DNA of 64,000 nucleotides from an uncultured Bacteroidota bacterium (GCA_902560065.1 CACEKG010000001.1:70308-134307); one strand, 5' to 3'. Numbered from the stretch's first letter, positions 16,255-52,801 are shown. Numbers and translations: made by a program. The notes: generated by a model from the sequence alone, not told the origin.

Positions 16255-16255
16255 A

Positions 16256-35100: not shown

Positions 35101-35266
35101 CTCAAGTATGAGATTATTTTACAGTGGTTATAATATTTTTACAATCACTGATTACACTGGAATGGACCCAGAGGTTCCATTTGGAGGAACAACTGATCTT
35201 GGAGTTGTATTTGCTCAATATCCAACTTCAAAATCTCACTCAATTGGTGTTAACATTAAATTTTAA
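32174..35266 (+). CDS. susC: SusC/RagA-family TonB-dependent outer-membrane transporter
   Basis: 1030 aa. CarboxypepD_reg-like N-domain (VSGTVTDEAGGAIPGITV...DFDGNYSI), plug (ALQGRVAGVNV), long barrel and terminal Phe. SusD follows immediately. Confidence 0.92.
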   Translation: MIKNLTGILFFFLASFFTYSQIDVSGTVTDEAGGAIPGITVIIAGTNQGTTTDFDGNYSITASADQELEFSSLGFVTQRIAINNQDNIDVIMIESIEVLDEIVVSGYSTQSRRTLSGAIGSVDVADAIKTPTTNAAEALQGRVAGVNVVNSGQPGAAPVVTVRGYATTNSNNPLYVIDGVQTEDPNVLRDINPKDIDKISVLKDGAAAIYGARASNGIIVVTTKGGTYNTKNTIEVEAVYGTNDLTNRMELLNSQQWADMIWQSKINDGIAPSHPQLGSGASPVLPTVLNIQMPNLPQYEGASAVVEPGGTRWMDELFKKSNTLNTSIVARGGSETGRYSLSVNYLDQEGVKIFTGYERLTTRLNSEFKIGDKVTIGEHLNVTYDKEQTGAGDFRSASGLAPIVPIRDDKGNFAGSYNNSYGLGIADSPVAQSYRAQDNYNKNLRVIGDIFLKYDITDFLTFKSSAGIQMRQLNGRSFAKLNPEHGEAISTQTLRENSFLNSEWVISNTLTYSDSFGDHAIDALIGTEAVKWSQKGSGVLRTGYLFETPEFYLLSNGSGTPVVFDGYDTSYSLFSLFATANYAFKEKYFFTATVRQDETSRFAKANADSIFPSASAGWLISDESFFPSGLVSTMKLRASYGILGNQSLTVSNPDTNISLLSENAAFYVFTGSGAATTGAALNSKGNPALTWEKTTSQNFAVDFGFFDNKLTATIDMFSNETQDLISQDNNLISSTAIDAAAPYVNIGSMETKGFDLSLAYQNETNGLQYGLTANVTKAENEVTSLIAEYYSGGTSRMGALTRTAPGYPISSYYGRIVDGIFQNDGEVAAHASQDGAAPGRLRYKDVDGNGVINDLDRTWMGSYHPDFTYGININMAYQNFDLSAFFYGVQGADLFHYTRLYNSFPLFFNGNRTTDVLDSWTPSNPDAAMPALSEAIRNNEATASNSFFVEDASYLRLRSLQVGYTFPEAINNLIGASSMRLFYSGYNIFTITDYTGMDPEVPFGGTTDLGVVFAQYPTSKSHSIGVNIKF

Positions 35267-35314
35267 AAAAACGATGCGAACAATATCAATAACTAATAAA
35301 ATAAATTATTAAAT

Positions 35315-37009: not shown

Positions 37010-37027
37010 TTTTATATAAATACAATT

Positions 37028-37062
37028 AAAAAAGGGTAAAATTTTATTTTACCCTTTTTTTT
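37028..37062. terminator. Bidirectional intrinsic terminator between susD and the convergent lipoprotein gene
   Basis: Hairpin AAGGGTAAAAT / ATTTTACCCTT, flanked by an A-run on the left and a T-run on the right. Confidence 0.6.
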
Positions 37063-37082
37063 ATGCCTAATAAAAATAAAAG

Positions 37083-37520
37083 CTAATTACAATATTCATT
37101 TTCATTAATCAATTTATCTAATTCACTTTTATCTTTTTTAAAAAAATAATTTGTGTTTCCTCCTGTTAATCTGACTTTTTCAATAACCGTATCATTAACA
37201 ATTGTATACATCCATTCTCTGTCATCATAACTTTCTACAAAAGAATTTTTACTAATACTAACTAAACTGGCTCCCACAGTTTGAGGTGTCTCATATAATA
37301 TACAGCCATTATTAATTAGATGTACATCCATATAAATACCATTAGGATCATTAAATATAGTCCAATAAGACTCCCTGCCTTGAGGGCTCCAAACAGTTCC
37401 ATCTAAACACTCTAAAATATTTTGACAGGATTTTTTTTCAACTTCACAGCTAAATAAAAAAATTAATGAGATAATTACAATAAATGTTTTATTCAAAGCT
37501 TTGTTTTTATTTTGAATCAT
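37083..37520 (-). CDS. Hypothetical lipoprotein (145 aa)
   Basis: Signal peptide with lipobox (LFSCEVE). No recognisable domain. Confidence 0.55.
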   Translation of the reverse strand: MIQNKNKALNKTFIVIISLIFLFSCEVEKKSCQNILECLDGTVWSPQGRESYWTIFNDPNGIYMDVHLINNGCILYETPQTVGASLVSISKNSFVESYDDREWMYTIVNDTVIEKVRLTGGNTNYFFKKDKSELDKLINENEYCN

Positions 37521-37656
37521 AATATAAATTTAAATAGAAATTAAAAATATTTTAAAAAATTCTTCATTTTAATAACATAATTATTTAGTCATAATATGAA
37601 ATTTTATTTTAATAAAACCATATTTTTGCATTACTTTTTTAATATTTAAAAAAATA

Positions 37657-40600
37657 ATGGTCTCCAAAAGTTTCAAAAATTTTAAATTTTCTTTTTTACT
37701 TTTTGTCCTAATAAGTTTAATTAATTGTACAAACAATAATAAGCTTTTCAATAAACTTTCAAGTAAGCAAACAAATATTTCATTTAATAATACAATAGTT
37801 GAGAATGACACATTAAATATTTTAAATGAAGAATATGTGTTTAATGGAGGTGGAGTTATATCTGCGGACTTTGATAATGATGGGTTAATTGATTTATTTT
37901 TCTCTGGAAATCAAAAACCCAATAAACTTTATTTAAATAAAGGAAAATTTAATTTTAAAGATATAAGTTCTATTTCTAATATAGAGGCTTTAGACAAGTG
38001 GTCTACAGGTTTAACATATGCTGATATAAATAATGATGGATTAATAGATATATATGTTTGTGCTGCAATGAAAAAAGAAAATAGAAATAATATGTTGTTT
38101 ATTAATAAAGGTTTAGATGAAAATACTGGTGAAATTTTATTTAAGGAAATGGCTAAAGAATATGGAATTGACGATTCAGGAAATAGTATGGGGGCTATTT
38201 TTTTTGATTATAATAAAGATGGACATATGGACTTATATGTCTTAAATAATGAACAAAATAAATCAATTCCTACCAATTATAGAAAAAAAATAATTGATGG
38301 CTCTGCAGTTAGTAATGACAAATTATATAAAAATAATGGCAATGGAACTTTTACAGATGTCTCTCTTGAAGCAGGAATTACTATTGAAGGTTTTGGTTTA
38401 GGTGTTGCCGTTGCAGACATTAATTATGACGGATGGCCAGATATTTTTATTGGAAACGATTATACAACTAATGACTTACTTTATATTAACAATAGAGATG
38501 GTACTTTTTCTAATCAAATTTCAAAATTTATTAAACACCAAAGTATGTTTTCAATGGGTGTTGATATTTCAGACTTTAATAATGATGGATATCAAGATAT
38601 TATATCTTTAGATATGCTAGGTGAATCCAATTACAGAAAAAAAACTACTATTTCTTTTAGCACATATGAAAAAGTAATTCTTAATAAAAGATATGGATAC
38701 GAAACACAGCATATTAGAAATATGTTACACCTAGGAAATGGAGCAGAAGTTCCATTTAGTGAAATAGGTCTACTTTCTAATATTTATCAAACGGATTGGA
38801 GTTGGTCTCCTCTATTCTTTGATGCTAATAATGATGGCTTAAGAGATTTATTTATAACTAATGGTTTTCCAAGAGATATTACTGATAAAGATTTTTCTGA
38901 CTTTAGGTTGCAAGTCCAAAGATTTGTAAATCCTAAAGTTCTTCTCGATTCAATTCCCATTATTAAACAATCAAATTATTCATTTATTAATAATGGTGAC
39001 TTAACGTTTTCTGACTCAAGTGTTTCATGGGGAATTGATAAACCTTCTTTTTCAAATGGTGCTGTTTTTTCAGATTTAGATAATGATGGGGATCTTGATT
39101 ATATAGTAAACAATATTAACGATGAAGCCTTTATTTTCGAAAATAAAACACAAGAATTAAATAAAAATAATTTTGTTCAAATAAAACTCATAGGTCCAAA
39201 AAATAATTATACTGGAATTGGAGCTAAAATTGTATTAAGAGATACCAATGATGAAATCCAATTTCATGAAAACTATCATACAAGGGGTTACATGTCTTCG
39301 GTTGATAATACAATACATTTCGGATTAGGCAATAAAAATAAAGTTAAGTTTATTGAAATCCTATGGCCTGACGGAAAATATGAAAAAATATTAAATCCTA
39401 ATATTAACGAAAAATTAAAAGTTTTTTATAAAAATTCATCAATTGTTGAAAAAAACTCACTTAAGTTCCCTCTTGTAAAGAATAAATCAAAAACCCTGTT
39501 AAATGAAGTTTCTGATAAAAAAGAATTAACGTACAATCATAAACAAATAGATAAAGCGGATTTTAATATTCAAAGATTAATTCCCAGAAAAATTTCTGAA
39601 AGTAGTCCAAAAATTAAAAAAGGAGATTTGAATAATGATGGAATTGAAGATATTCTAATAATTGATGAAATAGATCTGCCAAAAATTTTTCTGTATTCTA
39701 AAAATGGAAAATTTAAAGAAAAAACTATTGAAATTAAAAAAATAAACAAAAACACTGAGATTTCAGATATTGCAATTATTGATATTGACAAAGATAAAAA
39801 CCTAGATCTTGTTATTTTGTCAAATTTTAGTGATTTTAGAAGAGATAAATATGAAGGAAGACTTCAATTTTATTTAAACGATGGACAAGCTAATTTTAAA
39901 TTAGCTGAAAATTTTACAAATAAAAATAAAATCGAACAAGGAAAATTGTTAAGATTTAATGATTTTGACAAAGACGGTGATGACGATTTATTCATATTAG
40001 GTAAGACTCATTTATCAAAATATCCAAAATCTTCTAAAAATCAATTTCTTGAAAACAAAAATGGAATTTTTATAGATGTTAGCAATAAATATCTAAATGA
40101 AAATGAAAGCATAGGTATTCCAAAAGATGCTGCATGGGCTGATATTAATGATGATCAAATTGATGATTTAATTATAATAAATGAGTTTAGTCCAATTCAA
40201 ATTTTAATAAATAAAAATAAATCATTTAGTAAATTAGAAAATACTGGATTAGAAAATTACATCGGCTGGTGGGAATCTCTTAAAATTATAGATAATGACA
40301 ATGATGGTGATTTAGATTTTTTTGTAGGAAACTTGGGGTCAAATAACCACTTTAATATATCAAAAGAAACTCCTGTTTCTTTACTTATAAAAGATTTTGA
40401 TAATAATGGATCCATAGACCCAATTTTATTTTCATACTCAAAAGACACAAATGGTGAGTTCAAACAATTTCCTGTAACCTTTTGGAATAACATGAAAACT
40501 CAAAGTCCTCTTTTTAGACAAAAATTTAATTATTATAAGCAATATGCACGAGCTGATATAAGTAAAATTTTTACTAAAACAGAAATTAAAGGTGCTGAAA

Positions 40601-40977
40601 ATTGGATTGTAAATTATGATAAATCATCATATGTAGAAAATCTTGGAAATGGCAAATTTTTAATCCATAGTCTTCCTATTGAAGCTCAATTTGCACCAGT
40701 ATATGATTTTGAAATATCAGATCTTAATAATGATAGTATAAATGATCTGTTAATAATTGGTAATGATTATGGAAATGAACCCTTTATAGGCCCTTATGAT
40801 GCTCTTTGTGGTTTAGTTCTTCTAGGTATAGATAAAAATAAATTTAAGCCCATCTCTCAAGATCAGTCTGGTTTTTGTGTGCCTGGAAACGCAAGAAGCA
40901 TTGAAACAATTAATAATAATGGTAATAATATTTTTTTAATCTCTCAAAACTCTGGAAAACTTTTAATCTTTGAATAA
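37657..40977 (+). CDS. FG-GAP/VCBS-repeat protein with ASPIC/UnbV domain (CRTAC1-like), lipoprotein
   Basis: 1106 aa. Lipobox LINCTNN, many DxDxDG-type repeats (DFDNDGLIDLF, DINNDGLIDIYV, DINYDGWPDIFIGND...) and a central UnbV_ASPIC-like block (GIGAKIVLRD...RGYMSSVDNTIHFGLG). Confidence 0.85.
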   Translation: MVSKSFKNFKFSFLLFVLISLINCTNNNKLFNKLSSKQTNISFNNTIVENDTLNILNEEYVFNGGGVISADFDNDGLIDLFFSGNQKPNKLYLNKGKFNFKDISSISNIEALDKWSTGLTYADINNDGLIDIYVCAAMKKENRNNMLFINKGLDENTGEILFKEMAKEYGIDDSGNSMGAIFFDYNKDGHMDLYVLNNEQNKSIPTNYRKKIIDGSAVSNDKLYKNNGNGTFTDVSLEAGITIEGFGLGVAVADINYDGWPDIFIGNDYTTNDLLYINNRDGTFSNQISKFIKHQSMFSMGVDISDFNNDGYQDIISLDMLGESNYRKKTTISFSTYEKVILNKRYGYETQHIRNMLHLGNGAEVPFSEIGLLSNIYQTDWSWSPLFFDANNDGLRDLFITNGFPRDITDKDFSDFRLQVQRFVNPKVLLDSIPIIKQSNYSFINNGDLTFSDSSVSWGIDKPSFSNGAVFSDLDNDGDLDYIVNNINDEAFIFENKTQELNKNNFVQIKLIGPKNNYTGIGAKIVLRDTNDEIQFHENYHTRGYMSSVDNTIHFGLGNKNKVKFIEILWPDGKYEKILNPNINEKLKVFYKNSSIVEKNSLKFPLVKNKSKTLLNEVSDKKELTYNHKQIDKADFNIQRLIPRKISESSPKIKKGDLNNDGIEDILIIDEIDLPKIFLYSKNGKFKEKTIEIKKINKNTEISDIAIIDIDKDKNLDLVILSNFSDFRRDKYEGRLQFYLNDGQANFKLAENFTNKNKIEQGKLLRFNDFDKDGDDDLFILGKTHLSKYPKSSKNQFLENKNGIFIDVSNKYLNENESIGIPKDAAWADINDDQIDDLIIINEFSPIQILINKNKSFSKLENTGLENYIGWWESLKIIDNDNDGDLDFFVGNLGSNNHFNISKETPVSLLIKDFDNNGSIDPILFSYSKDTNGEFKQFPVTFWNNMKTQSPLFRQKFNYYKQYARADISKIFTKTEIKGAENWIVNYDKSSYVENLGNGKFLIHSLPIEAQFAPVYDFEISDLNNDSINDLLIIGNDYGNEPFIGPYDALCGLVLLGIDKNKFKPISQDQSGFCVPGNARSIETINNNGNNIFLISQNSGKLLIFE

Positions 40978-40979
40978 TT

Positions 40980-41879
40980 ATGAATACATTTATAAAAAAT
41001 CTTTTTTTGTTTAAAATAACTCCTTTGCTATTTATTTTTTTAGTTATTACCTGCTCTTCCGATGATAAAGAAAGTGAGGAAAAACAAACATTAAATCAAA
41101 TTGAAATTCCAACAAAAGAACCTTATCTAATAGGAGAAGAACTAACTCTAATTTGGAGTGATGAATTTGATTATGAAGGATCCCCGAATATAGATAAATG
41201 GCATCACCAAACTATTCCTCCAAATAATGGAAGTTGGTGGAACGATGAATTACAACATTATACCGATAGACTAGAAAACTCTTATGTTGATAATGGTACA
41301 CTGAAAATTAAAGCTCTAAAAGAGCAATATGAAATTGATGGTTCATCAAAATCTTATACTTCTGCTAGACTTAACTCCAAATTTTCTTTCAGATATGGAA
41401 GAATTGATGTAAGAGCTAAGCTTCCAAAAGGTGCTGGAACATGGCCTGCTATTTGGACACTTGGAGCAAATATTAATGAGGTTGGAAATTATTTTGGCAA
41501 CCAATTTGGAAATGTTGGTTGGCCTGCTTGTGGAGAAATTGATATAATGGAACAAACTGGATGGGATAAAAATAGTATTGGAGGACATTTTCATTGGGCT
41601 GATAATTCTGGTAATTATCAAAACAAAGGAGAAAAAACAGATATTGAGAATTCGTCTGATGAGTTTCATACTTACTCATTGATTTGGGACAGTGCAAAAA
41701 TTTCTATTCTTTTAGATGATCAAACTTTCTTTAGCATATCAAATACATCTAACAATCCTTATGATAATGATCATTATTTATTAATTAACATTGCTATAGG
41801 TGGAAATCTTGGAGGAGATGTTCCTTCTAATTTTTCTGAAGAAATTATGGAAATAGATTATATTAGAATTTATCAATAA
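40980..41879 (+). CDS. Glycoside hydrolase family 16 beta-glucanase (laminarinase-type), lipoprotein
   Basis: The GH16 catalytic motif ExDxxE is present as GEIDIME. Lipobox VITCSSDD. Confidence 0.9.
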   Translation: MNTFIKNLFLFKITPLLFIFLVITCSSDDKESEEKQTLNQIEIPTKEPYLIGEELTLIWSDEFDYEGSPNIDKWHHQTIPPNNGSWWNDELQHYTDRLENSYVDNGTLKIKALKEQYEIDGSSKSYTSARLNSKFSFRYGRIDVRAKLPKGAGTWPAIWTLGANINEVGNYFGNQFGNVGWPACGEIDIMEQTGWDKNSIGGHFHWADNSGNYQNKGEKTDIENSSDEFHTYSLIWDSAKISILLDDQTFFSISNTSNNPYDNDHYLLINIAIGGNLGGDVPSNFSEEIMEIDYIRIYQ

Positions 41880-41949: not shown

Positions 41950-44900
41950 ATGAGAATTATATCTAAATTTTTATTCTACTTGTCAATCTCACTGATGATA
42001 TCATCCTGTTCAATCAATGTACCATCAGAAGTTGAGATGGAATTTTCAAATTTACCAGAAACTATTGATTATAATTATGATGTTAAGCCTATTTTATCCG
42101 ACAGATGTTATCAGTGTCATGGCCCAGATGAAAAAACAAGAAAGGCTGGTCTAAGACTTGATATTGAAGAAATTGCATTTTCTAAATTACAAAGTGGAAA
42201 TCAAGCTTTTTCATCAGGAAGCACTTATGGAAGTGAAGCTGCTCACAGAATTTTATCTTCTGACCCTGATGAGATGATGCCAACTCCAGAATCTAAACTA
42301 TCATTATCAAATAAAGAAAAGGCAATTATTCTAAAATGGATTGAACAAGGTGCCATTTGGAAAGAACATTGGTCTTTCCTCCCTGTGAAAAAGCCAAAAT
42401 TGCCAATTTTTGAAAAGGATAATAAAAAAATAAAAAATCCAATTGATAATTTTATTTATAATAAACTAATTAGAAATGATTTAAGTTTTTCCGAATTATC
42501 AACTAAAGAAAAACTTATTAGAAGAGTTTATTTTGACCTTACTGGTCTTCCCCCATCAATTCAAGAAGTAAATGACTTTGTTTCTGATGATGATCCAAAT
42601 GCTTATTCAAAAATTGTCGACAAACTGTTAAATAGTGATGAAAATGCAGAAAGATTAACAATGGAGTGGCTTGATCTTTCAAGATATGCAGATTCCCATG
42701 GATTACATGCTGACGGTTTAAGAATAATGTGGCCTTGGAGAGATTGGGTTATTAAGGCTTTTAAAAACAATATGCCTTACGATGAATTTGTTTCGGTTCA
42801 ATTAAGTGGAGATTTAAGAGAAAATGCATCAAGAGAAGAAAAAATAGCTACTGCATTTAGCAGGAATTCTCCTATGACTGCTGAAGGAGGAGTAATTGAT
42901 GAAGAATGGAGGTTAAATTATGTTTTCGATAGAACTGAAACAGTTGGGACAGCTTTTCTTGGTCTTACAATGATGTGTGCAAAATGTCATGATCATAAAT
43001 TTGATCCCATCTCACAGAAAGATTATTATCAACTATCTGGTTTTTTCAATCAAATTAGAGAACTTGGAATGACAGGTGATGATGGTGATTATGGTCCTTT
43101 AATGCTCTTGCCTGAAGTCTCTCAAGAAAAAAAGATACTTGCTTTAGATAAGAAAATTGATCAAAAAAAAACTAAACTAAAACTCACTGAAAAAGAGCTT
43201 TCCGAGTTTTATAATTATAGCAATGCTCTTTCTAAATCAAAAATTTCCAGATCAATTAAAAAATCAATTATTCAAAGAGCTAAACTTGAAAATATTAAAC
43301 CTTTTAAAAAGAAGCTTGCCTCATTTACAATTGTACAAGGGACTTTTGATAGAAGTTCAAATTTCATAATAGATAATGATTATAATATTTTATGTAATGT
43401 TGCCCCTAAAATAGAAAAAGGGATTGATGGAAATGCCTTTAAATTAGGAACTGGAAGTGATGCAATTTTTCTAGATGCTGTTCCTAATTTTGAATGGACA
43501 GATCCTTTTTCAGCCAGTGTTTGGATTAATACTGAAAAAAGAAAGAAAGGTTTTGGACAAACAATAATGGGTACCACAGGAGGTAAAAACAATTTTTGGA
43601 GAGGCTGGGATCTTTATTTAGATGATCAAAATTTTATTAATCTAAGATTAGTTAGTGCTCTTCCTGGAAATTTAATTCATATTAAATCAAAAGACTCTAT
43701 TTTAAAAAACAATTGGACTCATTTATCTTTTTCATATGATGGATTAGGAAAAGCAGATGGAACAAATTTATTTGTAAATGGTTCAAAAATTAAAAATCAA
43801 GTATTAGTAGATAATTTGTATAAAACCATAAAACCTGTATCAAGTAGTGGTATAAAATTAGAAAAAAGAGAACTTAAAATAGGTGTCTCAAATGATGGGT
43901 CTAGTGGAGATAACAAAATATTTAAAGGCTTAGTTGATGATATAGTTGTTTATAATAGAGCCTTAACTGATTATGAAATTGGTCATATTTATAATCAATA
44001 CAATGTTAGCCAAAAATTGAACTTTAATGATTCTCAAATAAAAAATCATATAATAAACAGTGATTATAAAATAACCCAATTGAAAAATCAAATTCAAAAT
44101 CTAAAGCAAAAAAAACTCAATGAAGTTTCTGATGTAATTGAATTAATGATTATGGAAGACATGGATACAAAAAGAAAAACTTTTCTTTATGATAGAGGTT
44201 TATACTCTATGCCTAGCTATGAAGTTAGCACAGACGTTCCATCTAAACTACCAAGAATGTCTGAAGATTTACCTAAAAATCGTATTGGGCTTTCAAAATG
44301 GTTATTTGATAAAAAAAACCCTTTAACTTCTAGAGTTGCTGTTAATAGATATTGGCAAATGATTTTTGGCAGGGGTATTGTTAATACACCTGGAGATTTT
44401 GGCGTTCAAGGTTCATTACCTTCTCATCCTGAATTACTTGACTTTCTGTCAAATTATTTTATTGAGAACAACTGGGATATTAAAAATCTAATAAGATTAA
44501 TGGTTAATTCACACACTTATATGCAAAGTTCAATACCAAATAAAAAATACACTGAAATTGATCCAGATAATATTTTTCTTTCTAGAAGCAATAGTTATAG
44601 GTTACCCGCTGAAATGATTAGGGATAATGCACTTGTTGCAAGTGGTTTAATGGTTAAAAATGTGGGAGGTGAAAGTGTCAAACCCTACCAACCAAAAGGT
44701 TTATGGAGAGAAAAATCAAATTTCTCTATAAAGCTAATGAACTATAAAGAATCCTCAGGTGACAGTCTCTATAGAAGAAGCATGTATACATTTATAAGAA
44801 GAACATCTCCTCCTCCATCAATGTCTGTTTTTGATGCTCCAAATAGGGAGGTATGTACAATAAAAAGAGAAATTACAAATACTCCATTACAAGCTCTTGT

Positions 44901-45228
44901 GCTTTTAAATGATCCACAATTTTTTGAAGCTTCGAGAATTTTAGCTGAAAGAATGCAAAAGGAAGCTCCAAACTCAATTGATGAATCTATATCTTATGGA
45001 TTTAAACTTTGTACATCTAGAAATCCTAAAGAAAAAGAATTGACTATACTTAAAGAACTTTATTTTCAACAACTTGATAAGTTCAAAAAAAATCCTAAAC
45101 TTGCGTATGATATTTTTAAAAGTGGAGAAAAACCAAGAGACAGGAGTTTAAATAGATATAAAACAGCAGCCTTATCAATGGTTGCTAATACTTTATTAAA
45201 CCATGACGAAACATATATGAAAAGATAA
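41950..45228 (+). CDS. PSCyt1/PSCyt2(DUF1549)/LamG-like/PSD1(DUF1553) multidomain lipoprotein, function unknown (copy 2)
   Basis: 1092 aa, collinear with the 12958-16254 product. Contains CYQCHG, CAKCHDHKFDP, a LamG-like middle section and NPLTSRVAVNRYWQMIFG. Confidence 0.85.
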   Translation: MRIISKFLFYLSISLMISSCSINVPSEVEMEFSNLPETIDYNYDVKPILSDRCYQCHGPDEKTRKAGLRLDIEEIAFSKLQSGNQAFSSGSTYGSEAAHRILSSDPDEMMPTPESKLSLSNKEKAIILKWIEQGAIWKEHWSFLPVKKPKLPIFEKDNKKIKNPIDNFIYNKLIRNDLSFSELSTKEKLIRRVYFDLTGLPPSIQEVNDFVSDDDPNAYSKIVDKLLNSDENAERLTMEWLDLSRYADSHGLHADGLRIMWPWRDWVIKAFKNNMPYDEFVSVQLSGDLRENASREEKIATAFSRNSPMTAEGGVIDEEWRLNYVFDRTETVGTAFLGLTMMCAKCHDHKFDPISQKDYYQLSGFFNQIRELGMTGDDGDYGPLMLLPEVSQEKKILALDKKIDQKKTKLKLTEKELSEFYNYSNALSKSKISRSIKKSIIQRAKLENIKPFKKKLASFTIVQGTFDRSSNFIIDNDYNILCNVAPKIEKGIDGNAFKLGTGSDAIFLDAVPNFEWTDPFSASVWINTEKRKKGFGQTIMGTTGGKNNFWRGWDLYLDDQNFINLRLVSALPGNLIHIKSKDSILKNNWTHLSFSYDGLGKADGTNLFVNGSKIKNQVLVDNLYKTIKPVSSSGIKLEKRELKIGVSNDGSSGDNKIFKGLVDDIVVYNRALTDYEIGHIYNQYNVSQKLNFNDSQIKNHIINSDYKITQLKNQIQNLKQKKLNEVSDVIELMIMEDMDTKRKTFLYDRGLYSMPSYEVSTDVPSKLPRMSEDLPKNRIGLSKWLFDKKNPLTSRVAVNRYWQMIFGRGIVNTPGDFGVQGSLPSHPELLDFLSNYFIENNWDIKNLIRLMVNSHTYMQSSIPNKKYTEIDPDNIFLSRSNSYRLPAEMIRDNALVASGLMVKNVGGESVKPYQPKGLWREKSNFSIKLMNYKESSGDSLYRRSMYTFIRRTSPPPSMSVFDAPNREVCTIKREITNTPLQALVLLNDPQFFEASRILAERMQKEAPNSIDESISYGFKLCTSRNPKEKELTILKELYFQQLDKFKKNPKLAYDIFKSGEKPRDRSLNRYKTAALSMVANTLLNHDETYMKR

Positions 45229-45233
45229 ATATT

Positions 45234-46688
45234 ATGAATTGTAACGATCATCATCATAACGAAAAATTTACAAGAAGAGATTTTCTAACAAAAACTTCTT
45301 TAGGCCTTGGAGCTCTTACTCTTGGATCTCTTATTAATCCTACTCCAGCTTTAGGTAATATTAATAGTAACAACTTAAGAGAAAATTTAAATCTTCCTCA
45401 TTTTCCTGCTAAAGCAAAAAGGATTATATATCTGTTTCAAAGCGGAGCACCTTCTCACCTTGATATATTTGATTACAAACCTTTATTAAAAAAAATGCAT
45501 GGTAAAGAAATCCCCGATAGTGTTAGAGGTGAACAAAGACTCACTGGAATGACTGCGGGACAAGCAAGTTTTCCTTTAGTTTCATCAATATTTAATTTCA
45601 AACAACATGGAAAAAGTGGGATATGGATGAGTGACCTTATGCCTCATACATCAAAAATAGTTGATGAATTGTGTTTTATTAAATCAATGTATACTGAGGA
45701 GATAAATCATGATCCTGCAGTAACCTTTCTTCAAACTGGATCAAATCTACCAGGAAGACCCTCAATGGGTTCTTGGGTTAGCTATGGATTAGGATCAGAT
45801 AATAAAAATCTTCCTGAATTTGTTGTTTTAGTTACAAAGAACAAAAGCGGTCAACCTCTATATGCAAGATCTTGGGGAAATGGATTTCTTCCTTCAAAAT
45901 ACCAAGGGGTTCAATTTAGATCTGGAAAAGATGCTGTTCTATATTTGGAAAATCCTCCTGGGGTAACTGGAGATATAAGAAAAGAGCAGCTTGATTATTT
46001 AAAAAAACTTGAAGATGAAAATTATAATGACATAGGAGATCCTGAAATTTTATCCAGAATGTCACAATATGAGATGGCATACAGAATGCAAACATCTGTG
46101 CCAGAAGTGATGGATGTTTCAAATGAGCCTGATTATATTTTTGATATGTATGGAGAGGACAGCAAAAATCCAGGAACTTTTGCAGCAAATTGTCTCTTAG
46201 CAAGAAAATTAGTTGAAAAGGATGTTAAATTTATTCAACTTTATCACCAAGGTTGGGATCAACATGGAAACCTTAATAATGATATTAAAATTCAATGTAA
46301 AGAAACTGATCAAGCCTCGGCTGCTTTGATCAAGGATTTAAAGCAAAGAGGGCTTCTAGAGGATACATTAGTTATTTGGGGAGGAGAGTTTGGAAGAACA
46401 AGTTATACTCAAGGATCAATAGATAGTCCCAGTTATGGAAGAGATCATCACCCTAGATGCTTTACAATTTTTATGGCTGGTGCTGGAGTTAAAAAAGGAA
46501 TAACATATGGTGCTACTGATGAATTTGGATACAATTTAACTGAAGATCCTGTTCATGTTCATGATTTTCAAGCAACAATTATGCATTTATTAGGAATTGA
46601 TCATGAAAGACTTACATTCAAGCATCAAGGTAGAAGATACAGATTAACAGATGTCCATGGGCATGTAGTAAAAAATATTTTATCATGA
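45234..46688 (+). CDS. DUF1501-family protein with Tat signal (copy 2)
   Basis: 484 aa. TRRDFLTKTSLGLGAL and GRDHHP. Very similar along its whole length to the 16256-17698 product. Confidence 0.85.
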   Translation: MNCNDHHHNEKFTRRDFLTKTSLGLGALTLGSLINPTPALGNINSNNLRENLNLPHFPAKAKRIIYLFQSGAPSHLDIFDYKPLLKKMHGKEIPDSVRGEQRLTGMTAGQASFPLVSSIFNFKQHGKSGIWMSDLMPHTSKIVDELCFIKSMYTEEINHDPAVTFLQTGSNLPGRPSMGSWVSYGLGSDNKNLPEFVVLVTKNKSGQPLYARSWGNGFLPSKYQGVQFRSGKDAVLYLENPPGVTGDIRKEQLDYLKKLEDENYNDIGDPEILSRMSQYEMAYRMQTSVPEVMDVSNEPDYIFDMYGEDSKNPGTFAANCLLARKLVEKDVKFIQLYHQGWDQHGNLNNDIKIQCKETDQASAALIKDLKQRGLLEDTLVIWGGEFGRTSYTQGSIDSPSYGRDHHPRCFTIFMAGAGVKKGITYGATDEFGYNLTEDPVHVHDFQATIMHLLGIDHERLTFKHQGRRYRLTDVHGHVVKNILS

Positions 46689-47743
46689 AAAAATCAAATT
46701 TAAATTCAAGGCGAAGTTTTATAAAAAAATCTGCTTTAGTTGGTGTTGGAATTAGTTCTCCAATTAACACCTTTGCAATAGGAAAAAATTTAAAAGAAAA
46801 TAGTGGAATTGTAGGGCACGGAGATTTCAAATATAAAGTTGATAAAAAATGGGGAATTCAAAATCCAAATAATTTTCCAGTTAATCATTGTCATGAAATG
46901 GTAATGGATAAAAGAAATAGAATTCTAATGACTACAACTCATCCAAAAAATAATGTTTTAATTTATAATAAATCTGGTAAAATTCTTGACTCTTGGAGTA
47001 TAGGTTACTCTGGAGCGCATGGTTTGACTTTAGTTGATGAGGGGGGTGAAGAATTTTTATATATAACTGATCCGGATGCGCATAAGGTTTGTAAAACTGA
47101 TTTAAAAGGAAGAAAAATTTTAGAGTTCGATTACCCTAAAGAAATTAAAGAATATAACTCAAGAGAGGATTTTAAACCTACTGAAACAACTGTATCACCC
47201 AATGGAGATATCTTTATTGCTGATGGTTATGGAAAAGATTTTATAATTAAATATGATTCTAAAGGAAATTATATAAAGCATTTTGGAGGTAGAGGAGATA
47301 AAAATGATCAATTTGAATCTTGTCATGGAATAGCTATTGATACAAGAAAAAATAATAGTTCCTCACTATTAATTACTTCCAGATCTAAAAATGAGTTTAA
47401 AAGATTTGATTTCGAGGGTAATCACCTTGAAACTATTTCATTACCTGGATGTTGGATTTGCCGTCCTGTTGTTAAAGGAAATAATCTGTTTTTTGCTGTA
47501 ATTATTACTGAAAGTTGGTGGAATTATGATGGTATGATAGCTGTTTTAGATAATAATAACAAAGTTGTTTCAATGCCAGGGGGAAGTGATCCAAAATACG
47601 CAGGTAATAAATTGGAAAAACCTCTTTATGACGACAAAACATTTTTAAACCCTCATGATGTTTGTGTAGATAACGATGACAATTTATATGTTCCTCAATG
47701 GAATTCAGGTAAAACGTATCCTGTCAAATTAATTAGAACTTAA
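46685..47743 (+). CDS. Tat-signal six-bladed beta-propeller protein (NHL / peptidyl-alpha-hydroxyglycine-lyase-like)
   Basis: SRRSFIKKSALVGVG signal. Repeated blade-like units (LYITDPDAHKV, IFIADGYGKDFIIKYD, HGIAIDT, PHDVCVDNDDNLYV). The start overlaps the DUF1501 stop (ATGA). Confidence 0.7.
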   Translation: MKKSNLNSRRSFIKKSALVGVGISSPINTFAIGKNLKENSGIVGHGDFKYKVDKKWGIQNPNNFPVNHCHEMVMDKRNRILMTTTHPKNNVLIYNKSGKILDSWSIGYSGAHGLTLVDEGGEEFLYITDPDAHKVCKTDLKGRKILEFDYPKEIKEYNSREDFKPTETTVSPNGDIFIADGYGKDFIIKYDSKGNYIKHFGGRGDKNDQFESCHGIAIDTRKNNSSSLLITSRSKNEFKRFDFEGNHLETISLPGCWICRPVVKGNNLFFAVIITESWWNYDGMIAVLDNNNKVVSMPGGSDPKYAGNKLEKPLYDDKTFLNPHDVCVDNDDNLYVPQWNSGKTYPVKLIRT

Positions 47744-47753
47744 TTTATTTTTA

Positions 47754-49124
47754 ATGATAGTATTTGATATCTCTTCTTTTTTTGGAAGGTTTCATCCCAT
47801 AGTGGTTCATTTACCTATTGGTTTTATTTTTTTAGCAATTTTTTTAGAGATTTATGTTGCCTATAAAAAGTTAAACTTTAGTAGAAGAATTATAAGTTTT
47901 TGTTGGTTTTTAGGATTTATAAGTTCTTTTTTTGCTGCATTATTTGGTTGGCTATTAGCTTCTAATGGTTATTATATAGAAGAAAACATATATATTCATA
48001 GATGGTCAGGTATTTTAATTGTTTTTCTAAGTTTTATTGGTTGGGGAATTAAAGCTAGAATAATTAATCTATTTAAATCCCAAGATTCATTTATAAATTA
48101 TACAGTATTAATTTTTCTTTTAATTGTTGGTCATCAAGGTGGAAATATTACTCATGGTGAAAATTATCTTTTTGAATATGCACCAGACTTTGTGAAAAAA
48201 TATTTTTATAAAGAAAAAAATCAACTCATTTCATATAAAGAAAAAGAAATTGATTCTATTGAAGTTTTTTCAGAATTAATTCTTCCAGTTTTTGAAAATA
48301 AATGTATAGCCTGTCACAATAATGATATTTCAAGTGGTGGCTTAAATATGATCAGTTTGGAAAAAATTTTAGTAGGAGGAGCAGCAGGAAGTTCAATTAT
48401 TGATGGAAATTCTTTAAGTAGTCCTATTTTCAAAAGGATAACACTTCCTCAAAGTCATTCAAAATTTATGCCTCCATCGGGAGAGCCACTGACTTATGAT
48501 GAAATTAATTTAATTGAATGGTGGATTAATAATGGTGTAAAAAATGATATAAGATTAATTGATATTGAATTATCAAATGAAGAAGAATTACTACTAGCAA
48601 GGCTTTTTGAAATTGATACAAAACCAAAACCTTGGTATGAAAAGCTTAAAAACTTGGAAGAATTAAATTCAGAGGAATTAAAAAAATTAGAAGTCAAAAA
48701 CCTCTCTTGGAAACAACTTGCTAATAATTATCCAGTAATTGAAATTAAATTTAATGGGAATGATATAAGTGATGATGTTCTAAATGAAATATTAAAATTT
48801 AATAAACATGTAATTTCACTTACTATTAAAAAAAGTGGTTTAAATGATTCTCAAATAAACATCATATCTAAATTAGAAAATCTCATGATTTTAAATATTC
48901 AAAATAATCCTATAACAGATGATGGCATAAAAGGTATAAATTCATTAAATCATCTTGAAAGATTAAACCTTTATGGAACCAATGTCACTGACAAATCTCT
49001 TGAAACCTTTGCGTCGATAAAATCATTAAAGAAAATATACCTTTGGAACACTAAAGTTTCAAAAGAAAAGGTTAGTGAATTTAACCGAGAAAATAAATCA
49101 AAAGAAGCACTTCTCGACTTTTAG
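47754..49124 (+). CDS. Membrane protein: DUF2231-like N-terminal TM domain + PSCyt1-type cytochrome-c module + C-terminal leucine-rich repeats
   Basis: FHPIVVHLPIGFIF plus three further TM helices, a CIACHN heme motif with downstream FMPP, and LRR units (LENLMILNIQNNPITDDG, LERLNLYGTNVTD, LKKIYLWNTKVS). Confidence 0.75.
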   Translation: MIVFDISSFFGRFHPIVVHLPIGFIFLAIFLEIYVAYKKLNFSRRIISFCWFLGFISSFFAALFGWLLASNGYYIEENIYIHRWSGILIVFLSFIGWGIKARIINLFKSQDSFINYTVLIFLLIVGHQGGNITHGENYLFEYAPDFVKKYFYKEKNQLISYKEKEIDSIEVFSELILPVFENKCIACHNNDISSGGLNMISLEKILVGGAAGSSIIDGNSLSSPIFKRITLPQSHSKFMPPSGEPLTYDEINLIEWWINNGVKNDIRLIDIELSNEEELLLARLFEIDTKPKPWYEKLKNLEELNSEELKKLEVKNLSWKQLANNYPVIEIKFNGNDISDDVLNEILKFNKHVISLTIKKSGLNDSQINIISKLENLMILNIQNNPITDDGIKGINSLNHLERLNLYGTNVTDKSLETFASIKSLKKIYLWNTKVSKEKVSEFNRENKSKEALLDF

Positions 49125-49135: not shown

Positions 49136-49228
49136 TTAACAATAACAATCCTGGCAAGAGCAATCCTCACAATTACAATTACTGCAATTTATAGTCTCAC
49201 AACCATCACATGAGCAACTACAAGTCAT
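49136..49228 (-). CDS. Candidate 30-aa cysteine-rich (metallothionein-like) peptide; below the ORF-track length cut-off
   Basis: My own translation is MTCSCSCDGCETINCSNCNCEDCSCQDCYC*, with 11 Cys out of 30 residues in CxC/CxxC spacing. ATG start with an A-rich upstream context. Confidence 0.4.
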   Translation of the reverse strand: MTCSCSCDGCETINCSNCNCEDCSCQDCYC

Positions 49229-49343: not shown

Positions 49344-49562
49344 ATGAAAAAAATTTTTCTTATACTCTTTCTTTTATTTTCTTGTTATAAAGACAAAGCC
49401 ATTGACCAGCCATGCAAAAAAGATACTCCTATTAACTCGGATATCTTGTGTATTGAAGTTTATGAACCTGTTTGTGGCTGTGATAATGTCACATATAGTA
49501 ATAGTTGTTATGCCACAAATTATGGAAACATAAACTCTTTTGAAATGGGAGCTTGTAAATAA
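49344..49562 (+). CDS. Small lipoprotein with a Kazal-type protease-inhibitor-like domain
   Basis: Lipobox LFSCYKD. YEPVCGCDNVTYSNSC matches the Kazal core P-V-C-G-x-D-x-x-T-Y-x-N-x-C. There are six Cys after the lipobox. Confidence 0.65.
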   Translation: MKKIFLILFLLFSCYKDKAIDQPCKKDTPINSDILCIEVYEPVCGCDNVTYSNSCYATNYGNINSFEMGACK

Positions 49563-49975: not shown

Positions 49976-50060
49976 TACTCGGAGCGGGACTTGAACCCGC
50001 ACGACCGCAATGGTCATTGGATTTTAAGTCCAACGTGTCTACCAATTCCACCATCCGAGC
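49976..50060 (-). tRNA. tRNA-Leu (anticodon TAA)
   Basis: Hand-folded: acceptor GCTCGGA/TCCGAGT, anticodon stem TTGGA/TCCAA with loop CTTAAAA, long variable arm, T-arm GCGGGTTCAAGTCCCGC. Confidence 0.9.
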
Positions 50061-50072: not shown

Positions 50073-50144
50073 AGCGAAAGACGGGATTTGAACCCGCGAC
50101 CCTCACCTTGGCAAGGTGATGCTCTACCCCTGAGCTACTTTCGC
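50073..50144 (-). tRNA. tRNA-Gly (anticodon GCC)
   Basis: Hand-folded: acceptor GCGAAAG/CTTTCGC, D-arm GCTC/GAGC, anticodon stem TCACC/GGTGA with loop TTGCCAA, T-arm GCGGGTTCAAATCCCGT. Confidence 0.9.
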
Positions 50145-50203: not shown

Positions 50204-52801
50204 TTAATTCCGTTTTTTCAATTTTCTCTTTATTTCATTTAATTGAAGTAATGCTTCAACCGGTGTTAATGTATCAATATCAAGAGAATTAATCTCATCT
50301 CTTAATTCCTCTAACACTGGATCATCCAACTTAAAAAAACTTAATTGTAATTTTTCATCTTTTTTTGAGGTATCAATCTTCTCATTCGATGAACCATGAA
50401 TATTTTCTAGATTTTTTAATTTATTATTTGCTGATTGAATTACATGCCTGGGAATACCAGCCATTTTAGCAACTTGAATTCCAAAACTATGAGCACTTCC
50501 TCCAGGTATTAATTTTCTTAAAAAAAGAATTTTATTTTTTAACTCCTTTACTGAAACATTATAATTTTTTACTCTTTCAAAAAACTCCTTCATTTCATTT
50601 AATTCATGATAATGAGTAGCAAAAAGAACTTTTGGTCGATATGGGTGTTCATGTAAATATTCAGTTATTGCCCATGCTATTGATATTCCATCATAAGTAC
50701 TTGTTCCTCTTCCTATTTCATCCAATAAGACTAAACTTTTTTCACTAATATTATTTAAAATACTTGCTGTTTCATTCATCTCAACCATAAAAGTAGAAGC
50801 TCCCATAGAAATATTATCTGAAGCTCCTACTCTAGTAAAAATTTTATCAAAAACTCCAAGAGATGCAGTCGTTGCCGGCACAAAAGATCCTATCTGGTTT
50901 AATAGACAAATAAGCGCTGTTTGTCTCAAAATTGCAGACTTTCCTGACATATTTGGACCTGTAATCATTATAATTTGATTATTTTCTCTATCTAATGATA
51001 AATCATTTGATATGTATGGGTTTCCAGGGTCTAGCTGCATTTCGATGACAGGATGTCTTCCTCCCTTTATTTCAATTGAGCTTTTATCAATAATTTTTGG
51101 ACAACAATAATTATTTTTCTTTGCAATTAAAGCAAAGCAAGCTAAACAATCTAATGATGCTAAAATTTTTGCATTAATTTTTAATATATTAAGTTCATTC
51201 TGTAATTTTTTAATTAAATCAATAAAAATCTCTGATTCAAGTTGTTGAATTTGTTCTTCAGAGTTTAAAATTTTTACTTCGAACTCTTTTAATTCATCAT
51301 TTATATACCTTTCAGCACTAACTAGAGTCTGTTTTCTTATCCAATCTTCAGGAACTTTATCTTTATGAGTGTTTCTAACTTCAAAATAATATCCAAAAAC
51401 ATTATTAAACGCAATTTTTAATGAAGGTATTTTTGTTTTTTGAGTTTCTCTTAACAACATTTTATCTAAATAATCTTTAGATGATTTTTTTAATTCTCTA
51501 AGGCTATCTAATTCTGAAGAAAAACCATCAGCAATAACGTTTCCTTTATTCAAAAGAACTGGTGCTTCTGGATTTAAGGTTTTAGTTAAAATATTTACAA
51601 TTTTATCAGCATTTATAAATTTTTCGCTTAATAATTGTAGTGGTTTTAATTTAGTTGATTTTAATTCATTTTTTAAAGGTTTTATTAAATTCAAGGACTT
51701 ATTTAATTGGACTAATGACCTTGGATTAATTTTTTCTGTTGCTATTTTTGCCATTATTCTTTCCAAGTCAACAATCTGAGTTAGAATATTATTTACTTTT
51801 TCCAAACAGTTTTCATCTTTAATGAATGCTTTTACAGAATTATGACGATTTTGAATTTCAGATTTTTTATTTAACGGAAAAGCGATCCACCTTTTTAATA
51901 ATCTACCACCCATAGCTGTTTTCGTTCTATCAATCACATCAATTAAAGAAACCCCTTCAAAATGAGTTGGCCTAAAAAGTTCTAGATTTCTTATTGTAAA
52001 TTTATCTAGCCAAACATATGATTCATTAATTATTGGATTAATAGTTGTTATATGTCCAAGTTTATTATGATGAGTATCAGACAGATAATTAAGAATTGCA
52101 CCCGAACATTTAATAGCTTCATCCATTTTTTCAATTCCAAATCCCTGCAAACTATTTGTTTGGAAGTGTTTAGTTAATTTTTCATATGCTGTACTATGCT
52201 CAAAAGCCCAATCCTCTAAATAAAAAGAATTATAATTAGTTCCTAATAATTCGTTAAAGAGTTTTTTCTGAGGCTTAGATACCAATATTTCACTTGGAGA
52301 AAAACTTTGAATCAATTGCAGAATTTCTTCATTATCTCCTTGAGCACATAAAAATTGACCTGTAGAAATATCTAAAAATGAAACCCCATTTATTTTTCCT
52401 AAGATTAATCCACAAAGAAAATTATTCTTTTTTGTTTCAAGAACATTATCGTTTAAAGATACTCCTGGAGTTATTAACTCTGTTACTCCTCTTTTGACTA
52501 ATTTTTTAGTCATTTTCGGATCTTCTAATTGATCACAAATAGCAACTCTACATCCTGCTTTAACTAGTTTAGGTAAATAATTATTTAATGAATGATGAGG
52601 AAATCCAGCTAATTCAATTTCACTTGAACTCCCAGCACCTCTTTTTGTAAGAATTATATCTAGAATTGATGCGGCTTTTACTGCATCTGAACCAAAAGTT
52701 TCATAAAAATCTCCAACGCGAAACAATAACAATGCATCAGGGTACTTTGCCTTGATTTGATTGTATTGTTTCATTAATGGGGTCTCAACTTTTTTTGCCA
52801 A
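50204..52801 (-). CDS. mutS: DNA mismatch repair protein MutS
   Basis: 865 aa. N-terminus TPLMKQYNQIKAKYPDALLLFRVGDFYE, Walker A GPNMSGKS and DEIGRGTSTYDG. Confidence 0.95.
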   Translation of the reverse strand: MAKKVETPLMKQYNQIKAKYPDALLLFRVGDFYETFGSDAVKAASILDIILTKRGAGSSSEIELAGFPHHSLNNYLPKLVKAGCRVAICDQLEDPKMTKKLVKRGVTELITPGVSLNDNVLETKKNNFLCGLILGKINGVSFLDISTGQFLCAQGDNEEILQLIQSFSPSEILVSKPQKKLFNELLGTNYNSFYLEDWAFEHSTAYEKLTKHFQTNSLQGFGIEKMDEAIKCSGAILNYLSDTHHNKLGHITTINPIINESYVWLDKFTIRNLELFRPTHFEGVSLIDVIDRTKTAMGGRLLKRWIAFPLNKKSEIQNRHNSVKAFIKDENCLEKVNNILTQIVDLERIMAKIATEKINPRSLVQLNKSLNLIKPLKNELKSTKLKPLQLLSEKFINADKIVNILTKTLNPEAPVLLNKGNVIADGFSSELDSLRELKKSSKDYLDKMLLRETQKTKIPSLKIAFNNVFGYYFEVRNTHKDKVPEDWIRKQTLVSAERYINDELKEFEVKILNSEEQIQQLESEIFIDLIKKLQNELNILKINAKILASLDCLACFALIAKKNNYCCPKIIDKSSIEIKGGRHPVIEMQLDPGNPYISNDLSLDRENNQIIMITGPNMSGKSAILRQTALICLLNQIGSFVPATTASLGVFDKIFTRVGASDNISMGASTFMVEMNETASILNNISEKSLVLLDEIGRGTSTYDGISIAWAITEYLHEHPYRPKVLFATHYHELNEMKEFFERVKNYNVSVKELKNKILFLRKLIPGGSAHSFGIQVAKMAGIPRHVIQSANNKLKNLENIHGSSNEKIDTSKKDEKLQLSFFKLDDPVLEELRDEINSLDIDTLTPVEALLQLNEIKRKLKKRN

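Follow-up and report, generated by a model that had tools for sequence, protein, structure and literature searches.

A planctomycete-type cytochrome and DUF1501 gene pair in a conserved four-gene configuration in Bacteroidota

Among Planctomycetes, Verrucomicrobia, and Lentisphaerae (PVC bacteria), genes for DUF1501 proteins are paired with genes for proteins composed of PSCyt1, PSCyt2, and PSD1 domains, a pairing with twin-arginine (Tat) signals and an optional Laminin_G_3 domain that was reported in 2012 with its function unknown (Kamneva et al., PMC3542564) and taken up again in 2017 for freshwater Verrucomicrobia (He et al., PMC5615132). Ever since planctomycete genomes first appeared, the pair has stood out as very abundant, conserved, and of unknown function (PMC3542564, PMC5615132), and PSCyt genes were found to be enriched in oxic water layers, often together with carbohydrate-binding modules (CBMs) (PMC5615132). 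The "most complex" PVC cluster comprises four genes, encoding DUF1501, PPC-like, PSCyt1/Big_2/PSCyt2/PSD1, and PSCyt1/WD40 proteins (PMC3542564). Here, we analyze a four-gene cluster containing such a pair in a stretch of 64,000 nucleotides (nt) from an uncultured Bacteroidota bacterium (GCA_902560065.1 CACEKG010000001.1:70308-134307), hereafter referred to as the window, with coordinates counted from its first letter. The genes are named g1 (PSCyt/PSD1 lipoprotein), g2 (DUF1501), g3 (PAL-like propeller), and g4 (DUF2231-PSCyt1-leucine-rich repeat [LRR] protein), and their features are as follows.

41950-45228 (+): g1, lipoprotein with PSCyt1, PSCyt2 (DUF1549), a LamG insert, and PSD1 (DUF1553), 1092 aa (Pfam)
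42106-42288 (+): putative PSCyt1 heme-c domain of g1, residues 53-113, C53-x-x-C56-H57 ... M110-P111 (alignment)
42976-43005 (+): second heme motif of g1, C343-A-K-C346-H347-D-H349-K-F-D352, at the end of PSCyt2 (alignment)
43453-43980 (+): LamG/ConA-like insert of g1, residues 502-677, a putative substrate-binding module (Pfam Laminin_G_3)
44278-45060 (+): PSD1 (DUF1553) domain of g1, residues 777-1037 (Pfam, E 7.7e-97)
45234-46688 (+): g2, Tat-exported DUF1501 protein (PF07394), probably of the alkaline-phosphatase/sulfatase superfamily, 484 aa (Pfam, E 3.1e-162)
46685-47743 (+): g3, Tat-exported PAL-like propeller, 352 aa, with candidate catalytic residues H112, Y182, H214, R233, H324, and D325 (profile matches)
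47754-49124 (+): g4, predicted inner-membrane protein with DUF2231 (four transmembrane helices), PSCyt1 heme-c, and LRR domains, 456 aa (Pfam, AlphaFold2 [AF2])
47790-48155 (+): DUF2231 four-helix membrane domain of g4, with H14, H19, H82, H127, and H134 (alignment, AF2)
48303-48482 (+): putative PSCyt1 heme-c domain of g4, C184-x-x-C187-H188 ... M239-P240-P241 (alignment)
48702-49112 (+): LRR domain of g4, ribonuclease-inhibitor/NLR-like (Pfam, Protein Data Bank [PDB] profile and fold searches)

The locus resembles the PVC modules in that a DUF1501 gene with a Tat signal lies beside a PSCyt1/PSCyt2/PSD1 gene with a possible Laminin_G_3 domain, and it resembles the most complex PVC cluster in having an extra PSCyt1 protein with protein-interaction repeats; links of the PVC modules to electron transport and to carbohydrates have been proposed. 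It differs in its PAL-like lyase, in a DUF2231-anchored PSCyt1 protein that carries LRRs instead of WD40 repeats, and in its Bacteroidota host. Pfam revealed no PPC, Big_2, or WD40 domain in g1-g4, and only DUF1501 and PSCyt/PSD1 have counterparts in the PVC cluster. The first-pass annotation of this sequence had presented the locus as the best candidate in the window for an undescribed system, built around a pair not known to have an assigned biochemical function. The searchable full-text literature yielded no functional characterization of DUF1501, DUF1549, DUF1553, PSCyt, or DUF2231 and no description of PAL-like or DUF2231 partners of the pair; the present Bacteroidota version is not described there, and the core pair and a different four-gene cluster were both published in 2012 (PMC3542564). 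The locus is thus a known, uncharacterized pair in a configuration that is new and widely conserved in Bacteroidota, with accessory genes that offer clues to the mechanism.

Two further kinds of system invite comparison. PAL, a six-bladed propeller that holds one zinc, acts on the hydroxyglycine that the PHM monooxygenase produces and splits its C-alpha-N bond (PMC6529398). The locus is like this peptidylglycine alpha-amidating monooxygenase system (PAL catalytic core in PDB entry 3FVZ) in the PAL core residues of g3 and in the position of a lyase gene beside a redox partner, which is reminiscent of a hydroxylation followed by a cleavage. It is unlike it in that Pfam found no copper monooxygenase (Cu2_monooxygen, PHM) domain in g1-g4, so that the redox partner would be heme-c based, and in that g3 is bacterial, Tat-exported, and stand-alone, with a substrate that is probably not a peptide hormone. 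Flavocytochrome and quinohemoprotein dehydrogenases, NapC/NrfH/CymA, and YhjA are examples of periplasmic dehydrogenase-cytochrome c systems and of membrane quinol-cytochrome c modules. The proposed arrangement is similar to theirs, a periplasmic catalytic unit being wired through c-hemes to a membrane heme protein; no sequence or fold relation to them was found, and the anchor here is instead a DUF2231 domain with five histidines predicted at its periplasmic face, for which PDB searches gave no solved relative.

Conservation of the four-gene unit

Our data show that the four genes constitute one conserved, co-inherited module of the Bacteroidota. Reference genomes, one per species, were scanned for g4, which gave 572 confirmed relatives, and 80 loci from 79 assemblies were kept, representing Flavobacteriaceae, Cyclobacteriaceae, Saprospiraceae, Microscillaceae, and Cytophagales. 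Gene order was then counted by tblastn with the window proteins in the 55 loci having at least 6 kb of upstream and at least 3 kb of downstream sequence. All four genes were present in 34 of these loci (31 in the order g1-g2-g3-g4 and 3 in a variant order), and the PSCyt/PSD1 and DUF1501 pair lay beside g4 in 49; the pair and g4 occurred without g3 in 11 loci, and g4 stood alone in 5. In addition, annotation-free clustering of the flanking open reading frames (ORFs) uncovered only the families of these four genes as recurrent, present in 80, 68, 61, and 49 of the 80 loci, and the next flanking family was a classical CxPSR sulfatase (21 of 80).

A reciprocal sample was drawn from metagenome contigs on the basis of g3 (495 relatives, 80 loci kept, 30 with enough flank). 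This analysis revealed that 16 of the 30 loci hold PSCyt/PSD1, DUF1501, and a g4-like gene, and that 9 have none of the other three nearby. The full set persists down to 43-50% identity to the window protein for g3 and 22-32% for g4, and the adjacency of PSCyt/PSD1 and DUF1501 is strictly one-to-one over all loci. The distant g4 versions carry extra C-terminal CHB_HEX_C/Fn3_assoc domains, with an F5/8-type-C (discoidin) domain in 1 of the 3 scanned. Collectively, the two samples bear out the co-conservation on which the first-pass annotation had made its single system depend, and we consider it likely that the four genes also function together. Its further suggestion that the pair gains a propeller and a heme protein here understates the case, given that the four-gene order is the commonest context of g4 in Bacteroidota and no local gain.

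The coordinates and junctions of the ORFs were re-read directly from the sequence, and all agree with those annotated before. A 5-nt gap separates g1 from g2, g2 and g3 share an ATGA start/stop overlap (-4 nt), and a 10-nt gap separates g3 from g4, spacings that fit co-transcription. Upstream, 70 nt lie between the stop codon of a GH16 gene (41879) and the ATG of g1 (41950), as read from the sequence. Downstream of g4 come two small ORFs, a pair of minus-strand tRNAs, and then mutS, and we therefore take g4 as the end of the unit. Scans for a sigma-70 promoter (48 seen versus 52 expected) and for terminators (6 seen versus 3.6 expected) were uninformative on an internal promoter or read-through from GH16, Bacteroidota promoters being different from the sigma-70 model. 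Chance can be excluded because the ORFs are long, the profile matches are very strong, and the homologues number hundreds to thousands. Horizontal transfer was rejected as an explanation since the GC content of the unit (~0.30) is like that of the remainder of the window.

Domains and predicted active sites

Profile searches against Pfam recovered every domain named in the first-pass annotation, and the three CxxCH motifs that it had listed, two in g1 and one in g4, were located and found to be invariant among homologues. NCBIfam assigned no family to the four proteins, with matches to TafC, ScyF, XopL, and EmrE falling far under their cut-offs.

With more than 8000 homologues, g1 has the domain order PSCyt1-PSCyt2-PSD1 by which PSCyt1/PSCyt2/PSD1 "planctomycete cytochrome" proteins are recognized. 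Its E-values were 1.5e-12 (PSCyt1), 1.1e-77 (PSCyt2), 2e-16 (Laminin_G_3), and 7.7e-97 (PSD1), and the bit scores of PF07635 (PSCyt1, 48.3), PF07583 (PSCyt2, 261.1), and PF07587 (PSD1, 323.9) exceed gathering cut-offs of 22, 29.8, and 28.5, respectively. An alignment of 34 sequences revealed a lipobox (ISSC) whose Cys20 is at least 90% conserved. The first heme motif, CYQCH at residue 53, belongs to a set of invariant residues (C53, C56, H57, M110, and P111) whose pattern predicts His/Met ligation; the second, which begins as CAKCH at residue 343, is invariant save for K345, itself at least 90% conserved. The LamG insert is missing from distant orthologues, which measure ~740-760 aa.

The AF2 model of g1 (pLDDT 71, pTM 0.70) is poor precisely where the heme regions and two invariant stretches of PSD1 lie. 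Low confidence at residues 307-354, around the second heme motif, is to be expected because a cofactor site was predicted there without its cofactor. The invariant PSD1 stretches of low confidence, residues 913-933 and 944-984, may form a partner interface. A PDB fold search with this model returned just ConA/LamG jelly rolls (e.g., neurotoxin Hc, pentraxin, and a GH43 CBM), and a profile search against the PDB gave a similar outcome. Residues 35-137 also matched the C-terminal heme-c domain of anammox hydrazine synthase alpha (5c2v_A) with an E-value of 0.41, which is sub-threshold and was not taken as evidence.

The membrane end of the system would be g4, in which Pfam identified DUF2231 (E 5.5e-09), PSCyt1 (E 1.7e-09), and LRR_8 (E 2.1e-07), the DUF2231 match (PF09990) scoring 36.7 bits against a cut-off of 26.4. 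The AF2 model (pLDDT 85) contains long transmembrane helices at residues 19-38, 44-69, 76-100, and 110-134. The positive-inside rule predicts a periplasmic location for the N-terminus, the heme-c domain, and the LRR domain. Five histidines (H14, H19, H82, H127, and H134) are invariant in 74 sequences, and with this topology they would all sit where the helices reach the periplasm, a placement suggestive of a metal or heme site turned toward the cytochrome domain. In the same 74 sequences, the CxxCH motif (CIACH at residue 184) and a distal Met-Pro are invariant, and the spacing between them equals that in the PSCyt1 domain of g1, a pattern predictive of a His/Met electron-transfer cytochrome. 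The earlier description of g4 as a membrane-anchored heme protein is thus supported by its four DUF2231 helices and its conserved CIACH module, as judged from the sequence and the model. A PDB fold search with the g4 model found LRR proteins only (NLRP1 and ribonuclease inhibitor), leaving DUF2231 and PSCyt1 unmatched.

Full-length homologues of g4 (~456 aa) number in the hundreds in Flavobacteriaceae (e.g., Zobellia, Maribacter, Eudoraea, and Ulvibacterium). A search with the membrane domain (residues 1-150) gave 3200 clusters, and the best 150 of these have mostly the same ~450-aa architecture. Among its relatives is a 1137-aa protein (P0445) that unites DUF2231 with two PSCyt1 domains, Cytochrome_CBB3, and the complete PSD3/PSD5/PSD4/PSCyt3/PSD2 set known from the other "planctomycete" class of cytochrome proteins. 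In view of this fusion, DUF2231-PSCyt1 looks like a dedicated membrane module of PSCyt cytochrome systems. Two other DUF2231 relatives (P0469 and P0471) have added CHB_HEX_C and discoidin domains.

The DUF1501 match of g2 spans the whole profile (1-390/390, 540.6 bits), and its Tat signal, with the motif TRRDFL, reaches the TIGR01409 cut-off (17.6 versus 16.7 bits), in agreement with the first-pass annotation. We compared the g2 profile by hhalign with 18 true sulfatases from neighboring loci. Residues 355-469 alone aligned (probability 91.8%, E 7e-7), and in this C-terminal half, sulfatase elements have counterparts in the conserved D359, in a strand reading "TLVIWGG", and in a helix with the motif "HDFQAT". 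At the position of the sulfatase S-D280-N-G, g2 has G384-E385-F386-G387, so that E385-F386 replaces the D-N metal-ligand pair, a replacement that is also seen in weak PDB alignments of g2. A regex search found no C/S-x-P/A-x-R formylglycine motif in g2 or in g2b, a second DUF1501 protein in the window, whereas the co-located true sulfatases keep theirs (C75 and R79 invariant). In its features, g2 appears to be a member of the sulfatase/alkaline-phosphatase superfamily and yet no sulfatase: the homology of the C-terminal half of its catalytic domain and the frequent presence of true sulfatases as neighbors link it with type I (S1) sulfatases, and the motif differences and Tat export set it apart. 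A PDB match of g2 to sorbose dehydrogenase (E 0.04-0.08) was rejected as a short local similarity. The "hydrolase" label that the first-pass annotation had given to DUF1501 is therefore weak, and the accessory enzyme with a recognizable active site would be a lyase, g3.

For g3, the first-pass annotation had proposed an NHL/PAL-like propeller. Pfam matches to NHL and DUF5128, which are weak and over the cut-off, and the PAL profile match point to a six-bladed propeller fold. Its Tat motif is SRRSFIKK, with R9, R10, and F12 invariant in 24 homologues. There are 2043 homologues in all, several of which are called peptidylamidoglycolate lyase by JGI. A profile of the 24 homologues matched the catalytic core of rat PAL in the PDB (3fvz, E 5.7e-13) over chain residues 70-227 and 288-317. 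In this alignment, H112 falls on LP-H-GLS, Y182 on SDG-Y-C, H214 on VP-H-SLAL, R233 on AD-R-ENG, and H324-D325 on MP-HD-IV, and all six residues, with Y182 within DGYG, are invariant in the 24 homologues. The H324-D325 segment was aligned in a separate, sub-threshold HMMER domain (3.9 bits, independent E 1.9e2), and its placement follows from the collinear order and the shared invariant PHD motif. The six residues correspond to PAL H585, Y654, H690, R706, H786, and D787, which we take to be the zinc ligands (His585, His690, and His786), the catalytic tyrosine (Tyr654), a substrate-binding arginine (Arg706), and a calcium ligand (Asp787); this numbering agrees with the residue spacing in the 3fvz sequence. 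No g3 counterpart of PAL Arg533 could be mapped in the alignment. Higher-scoring TRIM-NHL matches were discounted as repeat-level similarity only. As far as sequence comparison can tell, g3 is a PAL-like lyase in which the active-site residues that we tested are intact, and the PAL-like part of the earlier proposal is supported.

Stand-alone homologues, 59-65% identical to g3, were found in four loci (L084, L086, L090, and L092). In one of them (L092, 668-9568), g3 ends a complete same-strand men operon (MenF, D, B, A, C, and E) together with HlyIII, and in three (L084, L086, and L092), Pfam identified a SOUL heme-binding gene within a few nt 3' of g3. The fourth (L090) has a similar-sized ORF 3' of g3 that lay outside the Pfam scan. 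Further stand-alone copies adjoin either a glucuronyl esterase and a GMC oxidoreductase or a sulfatase.

Candidate mechanism and alternatives

We propose, with a probability of roughly 0.4, that the module carries out a two-step oxidative bond cleavage in the periplasm. The g1-g2 complex would be the substrate-specific catalytic head, with the LamG insert binding a glycan-derived substrate. In the first step, g1-g2 would oxidize a C-H beside a heteroatom to a carbinol (hemiaminal or hemiacetal-type), and in the second, g3 would split this intermediate in the same way as PAL splits the PHM product. The heme c of g1 and the heme c of g4 would form an electron wire to the inner membrane, and the LRR domain would dock g4 to g1/g2. 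We slightly favor an outward flow of electrons, in which the module would be a dehydrogenase that delivers them via g4 to the respiratory chain, since periplasmic dehydrogenases linked to cytochrome c are a common type of enzyme and oxygenases built on heme c a rare one. The proposal draws on the gene order seen from both g4 and g3, the PAL active-site residues, the invariant heme motifs with their distal Met-Pro, the DUF2231 fusion in P0445, the tight junctions, and the published notes on oxic layers and CBMs (PMC5615132). The first-pass annotation had pictured a machine fed from the membrane; the membrane heme link that it implied is supported, and the direction that it assumed is one of two candidates.

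Several observations weigh against this proposal. The data constrain neither the direction of the electrons nor the substrate, and the cofactors of the module are predicted from motifs, with a heme-b, metal, or quinol site in DUF2231 being a conjecture. PDB fold and sequence-profile searches found no solved structural relative of the PSCyt2/PSD1 core, and the AF2 model of g1 is weakest precisely at its invariant sites. The N-terminal half of g2 does not align with sulfatases, so its catalytic residues could not be mapped, and sequence and profile searches of g2 against the PDB gave nothing significant. Moreover, g3 is missing in about one-quarter of the g4-linked clusters (11 of the PD4/PPD4 type plus 3 with a rearranged pair, of 55), and most PSCyt/DUF1501 pairs elsewhere lack it. 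The occurrence of g3 with a menaquinone operon and a SOUL protein could mean that its role is related to a cofactor and not to the substrate. Finally, many Flavobacteriaceae clusters lie between gldJ-like/murF and folC-like genes, a housekeeping neighborhood. This is the commonest context in the family and has the look of the core genome, not of a polysaccharide utilization locus (PUL).

The alternative that survives best, although we regard it as unlikely, reverses the electrons: menaquinol would be oxidized at the DUF2231 domain of g4, and electrons would pass from the g4 heme to the first and then to the second g1 heme, which would activate O2 or H2O2 and hydroxylate the substrate for cleavage by g3, in direct analogy to PHM and PAL. 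This is the sense in which "fed from the membrane" was originally meant, and it would make the module a quinol-driven peroxygenase or monooxygenase, for which MauG, a diheme enzyme, and YhjA, a quinol peroxidase, are comparisons. The invariant Met-Pro in both g1 and g4 agrees with such a flow, and His/Met c-hemes are usually too high in potential for menaquinone reduction. The position of g3 homologues beside a men operon, the enrichment of PSCyt genes in oxic layers (PMC5615132), and the precedent of PAL, which couples a lyase with an oxygenase (PMC6529398), point the same way. Set against these are the rarity of heme-c oxygenases noted above, the fold search of g4, which returned LRR matches and no quinol site in DUF2231, and the distal pocket of the second heme, which falls outside the confident part of the g1 model.

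Somewhat less probable still is a role of g3 and g4 outside the substrate chemistry, as accessory or housekeeping factors that happen to adjoin one pair: g4 would be a membrane cytochrome c of general use, and g3 would act on a quinone or heme cofactor. In Zobellia (L161, Zobellia roscoffensis, 10001-11371, and L027), a lone g4 sits between gldJ-like/murF and folC-like/exbBD genes, and g4 looks single-copy (80 loci in 79 assemblies) against two pairs in the present window. Likewise, g3 closes the men operon of one locus with SOUL genes next to it in three, and 9 of the 30 g3 loci lack the three partner genes. However, the adjacency and order of the genes are kept across families, down to g4 identities of 22-32%, the carbohydrate-binding domains gained by g4 relatives point to substrate proximity, and the LRR domain implies a specific protein partner.

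A third alternative, which we consider improbable, makes g1 a diheme maturase of g2, the true catalyst being a post-translationally modified g2, as MauG acts on methylamine dehydrogenase and formylglycine-generating enzymes act on sulfatases. It would account for the strict one-to-one adjacency of the pair, and an unusual modified residue is conceivable in a sulfatase fold without the usual nucleophile motif; classical sulfatases are also frequent neighbors (21 of 80 loci). However, a maturase would not need the variable lectin/CBM insert (LamG here and Big_2 or F5/8-type-C in the literature), nor need it equal its client in abundance, and g2 is Tat-exported and hence folded before meeting g1, which is Sec-exported and acquires its hemes in the periplasm.

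Glycan context and neighboring genes

Two other groups of genes in the window bear on a possible glycan link.

32174-41879 (+): upstream SusC, SusD, FG-GAP/UnbV_ASPIC, and GH16 genes (Pfam)
12958-17698 (+): second PSCyt1/PSCyt2/LamG/PSD1 (g1b, 1098 aa) and DUF1501 (g2b, 480 aa) pair (Pfam)

The weakest alternative, an accessory of a laminarin/beta-glucan PUL with DUF1501 as a sulfatase-like hydrolase and only an auxiliary role for the hemes, draws on the same-strand position 70 nt 3' of GH16 in a SusC/SusD locus and on the LamG insert, and is very improbable given that, among the 80 loci, GH16 adjacency is limited to the window and to one metagenome-assembled genome (MAG) that is 87-97% identical (L001), that FG-GAP/ASPIC and not GH16 is the conserved neighbor in the closest subclade, directly upstream of g1 (L015, L016, L053, L063, and L078), and that g2 fails the sulfatase active-site tests. 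In addition, SusC/SusD were found within 10 kb in a minority of the 80 loci, which does not amount to a conserved PUL linkage. With most Flavobacteriaceae clusters at the gldJ/murF...folC site, the glycan role that the first-pass annotation had derived from GH16 is not supported. A generic glycan link is plausible all the same, in view of the LamG insert, the discoidin and CHB_HEX_C domains on distant g4 proteins, the sulfatases in 21 of the 80 loci, and the carbohydrate-active enzymes around both pairs.

The second pair is 59% (g1b) and 79% (g2b) identical to g1 and g2 and has no g3 or g4 of its own. It is preceded (4123-12875) by genes for GH3, an alpha/beta hydrolase, a Gfo/Idh/MocA oxidoreductase, GH20, and a GH20-like protein. 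In most genomes, the pair that is joined to g3-g4 resembles g1b/g2b more than g1/g2. Several pairs probably use a common g3 and g4 in trans, given that the window has two pairs and one g3-g4, that the 80 g4 loci come from 79 assemblies, and that Zobellia has a lone g4. In marine Bacteroidota and PVC bacteria, these pairs rank with the most abundant uncharacterized gene families. Extending the proposed oxidative cleavage, we would tentatively suggest, at odds well below even, that the pairs are substrate-specific heads of an unrecognized, respiratory-coupled, non-hydrolytic cleavage of bonds in glycans or their decorations, with DUF2231-PSCyt1-LRR as the shared redox module and the PAL homologue finishing the reaction.

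The fixed four-gene unit turns a question about domains of unknown function into testable ideas, namely that electrons are wired to the membrane and that a second step cleaves a carbinol, and cultured Flavobacteriia carry the cluster (e.g., Maribacter, Eudoraea, and Ulvibacterium). If the proposal is true, DUF2231-PSCyt1-LRR would be a novel class of membrane redox module linking a quinol or an oxidase to cytochrome c, and the cluster would be a prokaryotic, heme-based counterpart of the two-step PHM/PAL reaction. Oxidative glycan processing, if true, would also change the annotation of marine carbon turnover by these bacteria.

In ten related marine MAGs (L012, L013, L025, L028, L035, L036, L037, L045, L046, and L050), sequence motifs place an LmbE/PIG-L-type deacetylase, a secreted Gfo/Idh/MocA oxidoreductase, gluconokinase, and 6-phosphogluconate dehydrogenase 3' of g4. 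These genes may hint at a sugar-acid product or reflect mere lineage synteny.

Elsewhere in the window, a 580-aa ORF (26249-27991, -) matches Alpha_L_fucos at residues 23-360 and the Plug domain of TonB-dependent receptors at residues 468-574, an odd combination that may stem from a gene fusion or a frameshift. Between SusD and FG-GAP/ASPIC, a gap of 647 nt contains a 145-aa ORF (37083-37520, -) with no Pfam match. Of the two small ORFs that follow g4, the first (49136-49228, -) has 30 codons and is extremely cysteine-rich (MTCSCSCDGCETINCSNCNCEDCSCQDCYC), and may be a chance ORF; the second (49344-49562, +) encodes a 72-aa lipoprotein-like product with a Kazal-type motif (VCGCDNVTYSNSCYA). 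An Rfam scan near the cluster found only the two downstream tRNAs (RF00005, 61 and 71 bits), which lie at 49976-50060 and 50073-50144 on the minus strand, between the cluster and mutS (50204-52801, -).

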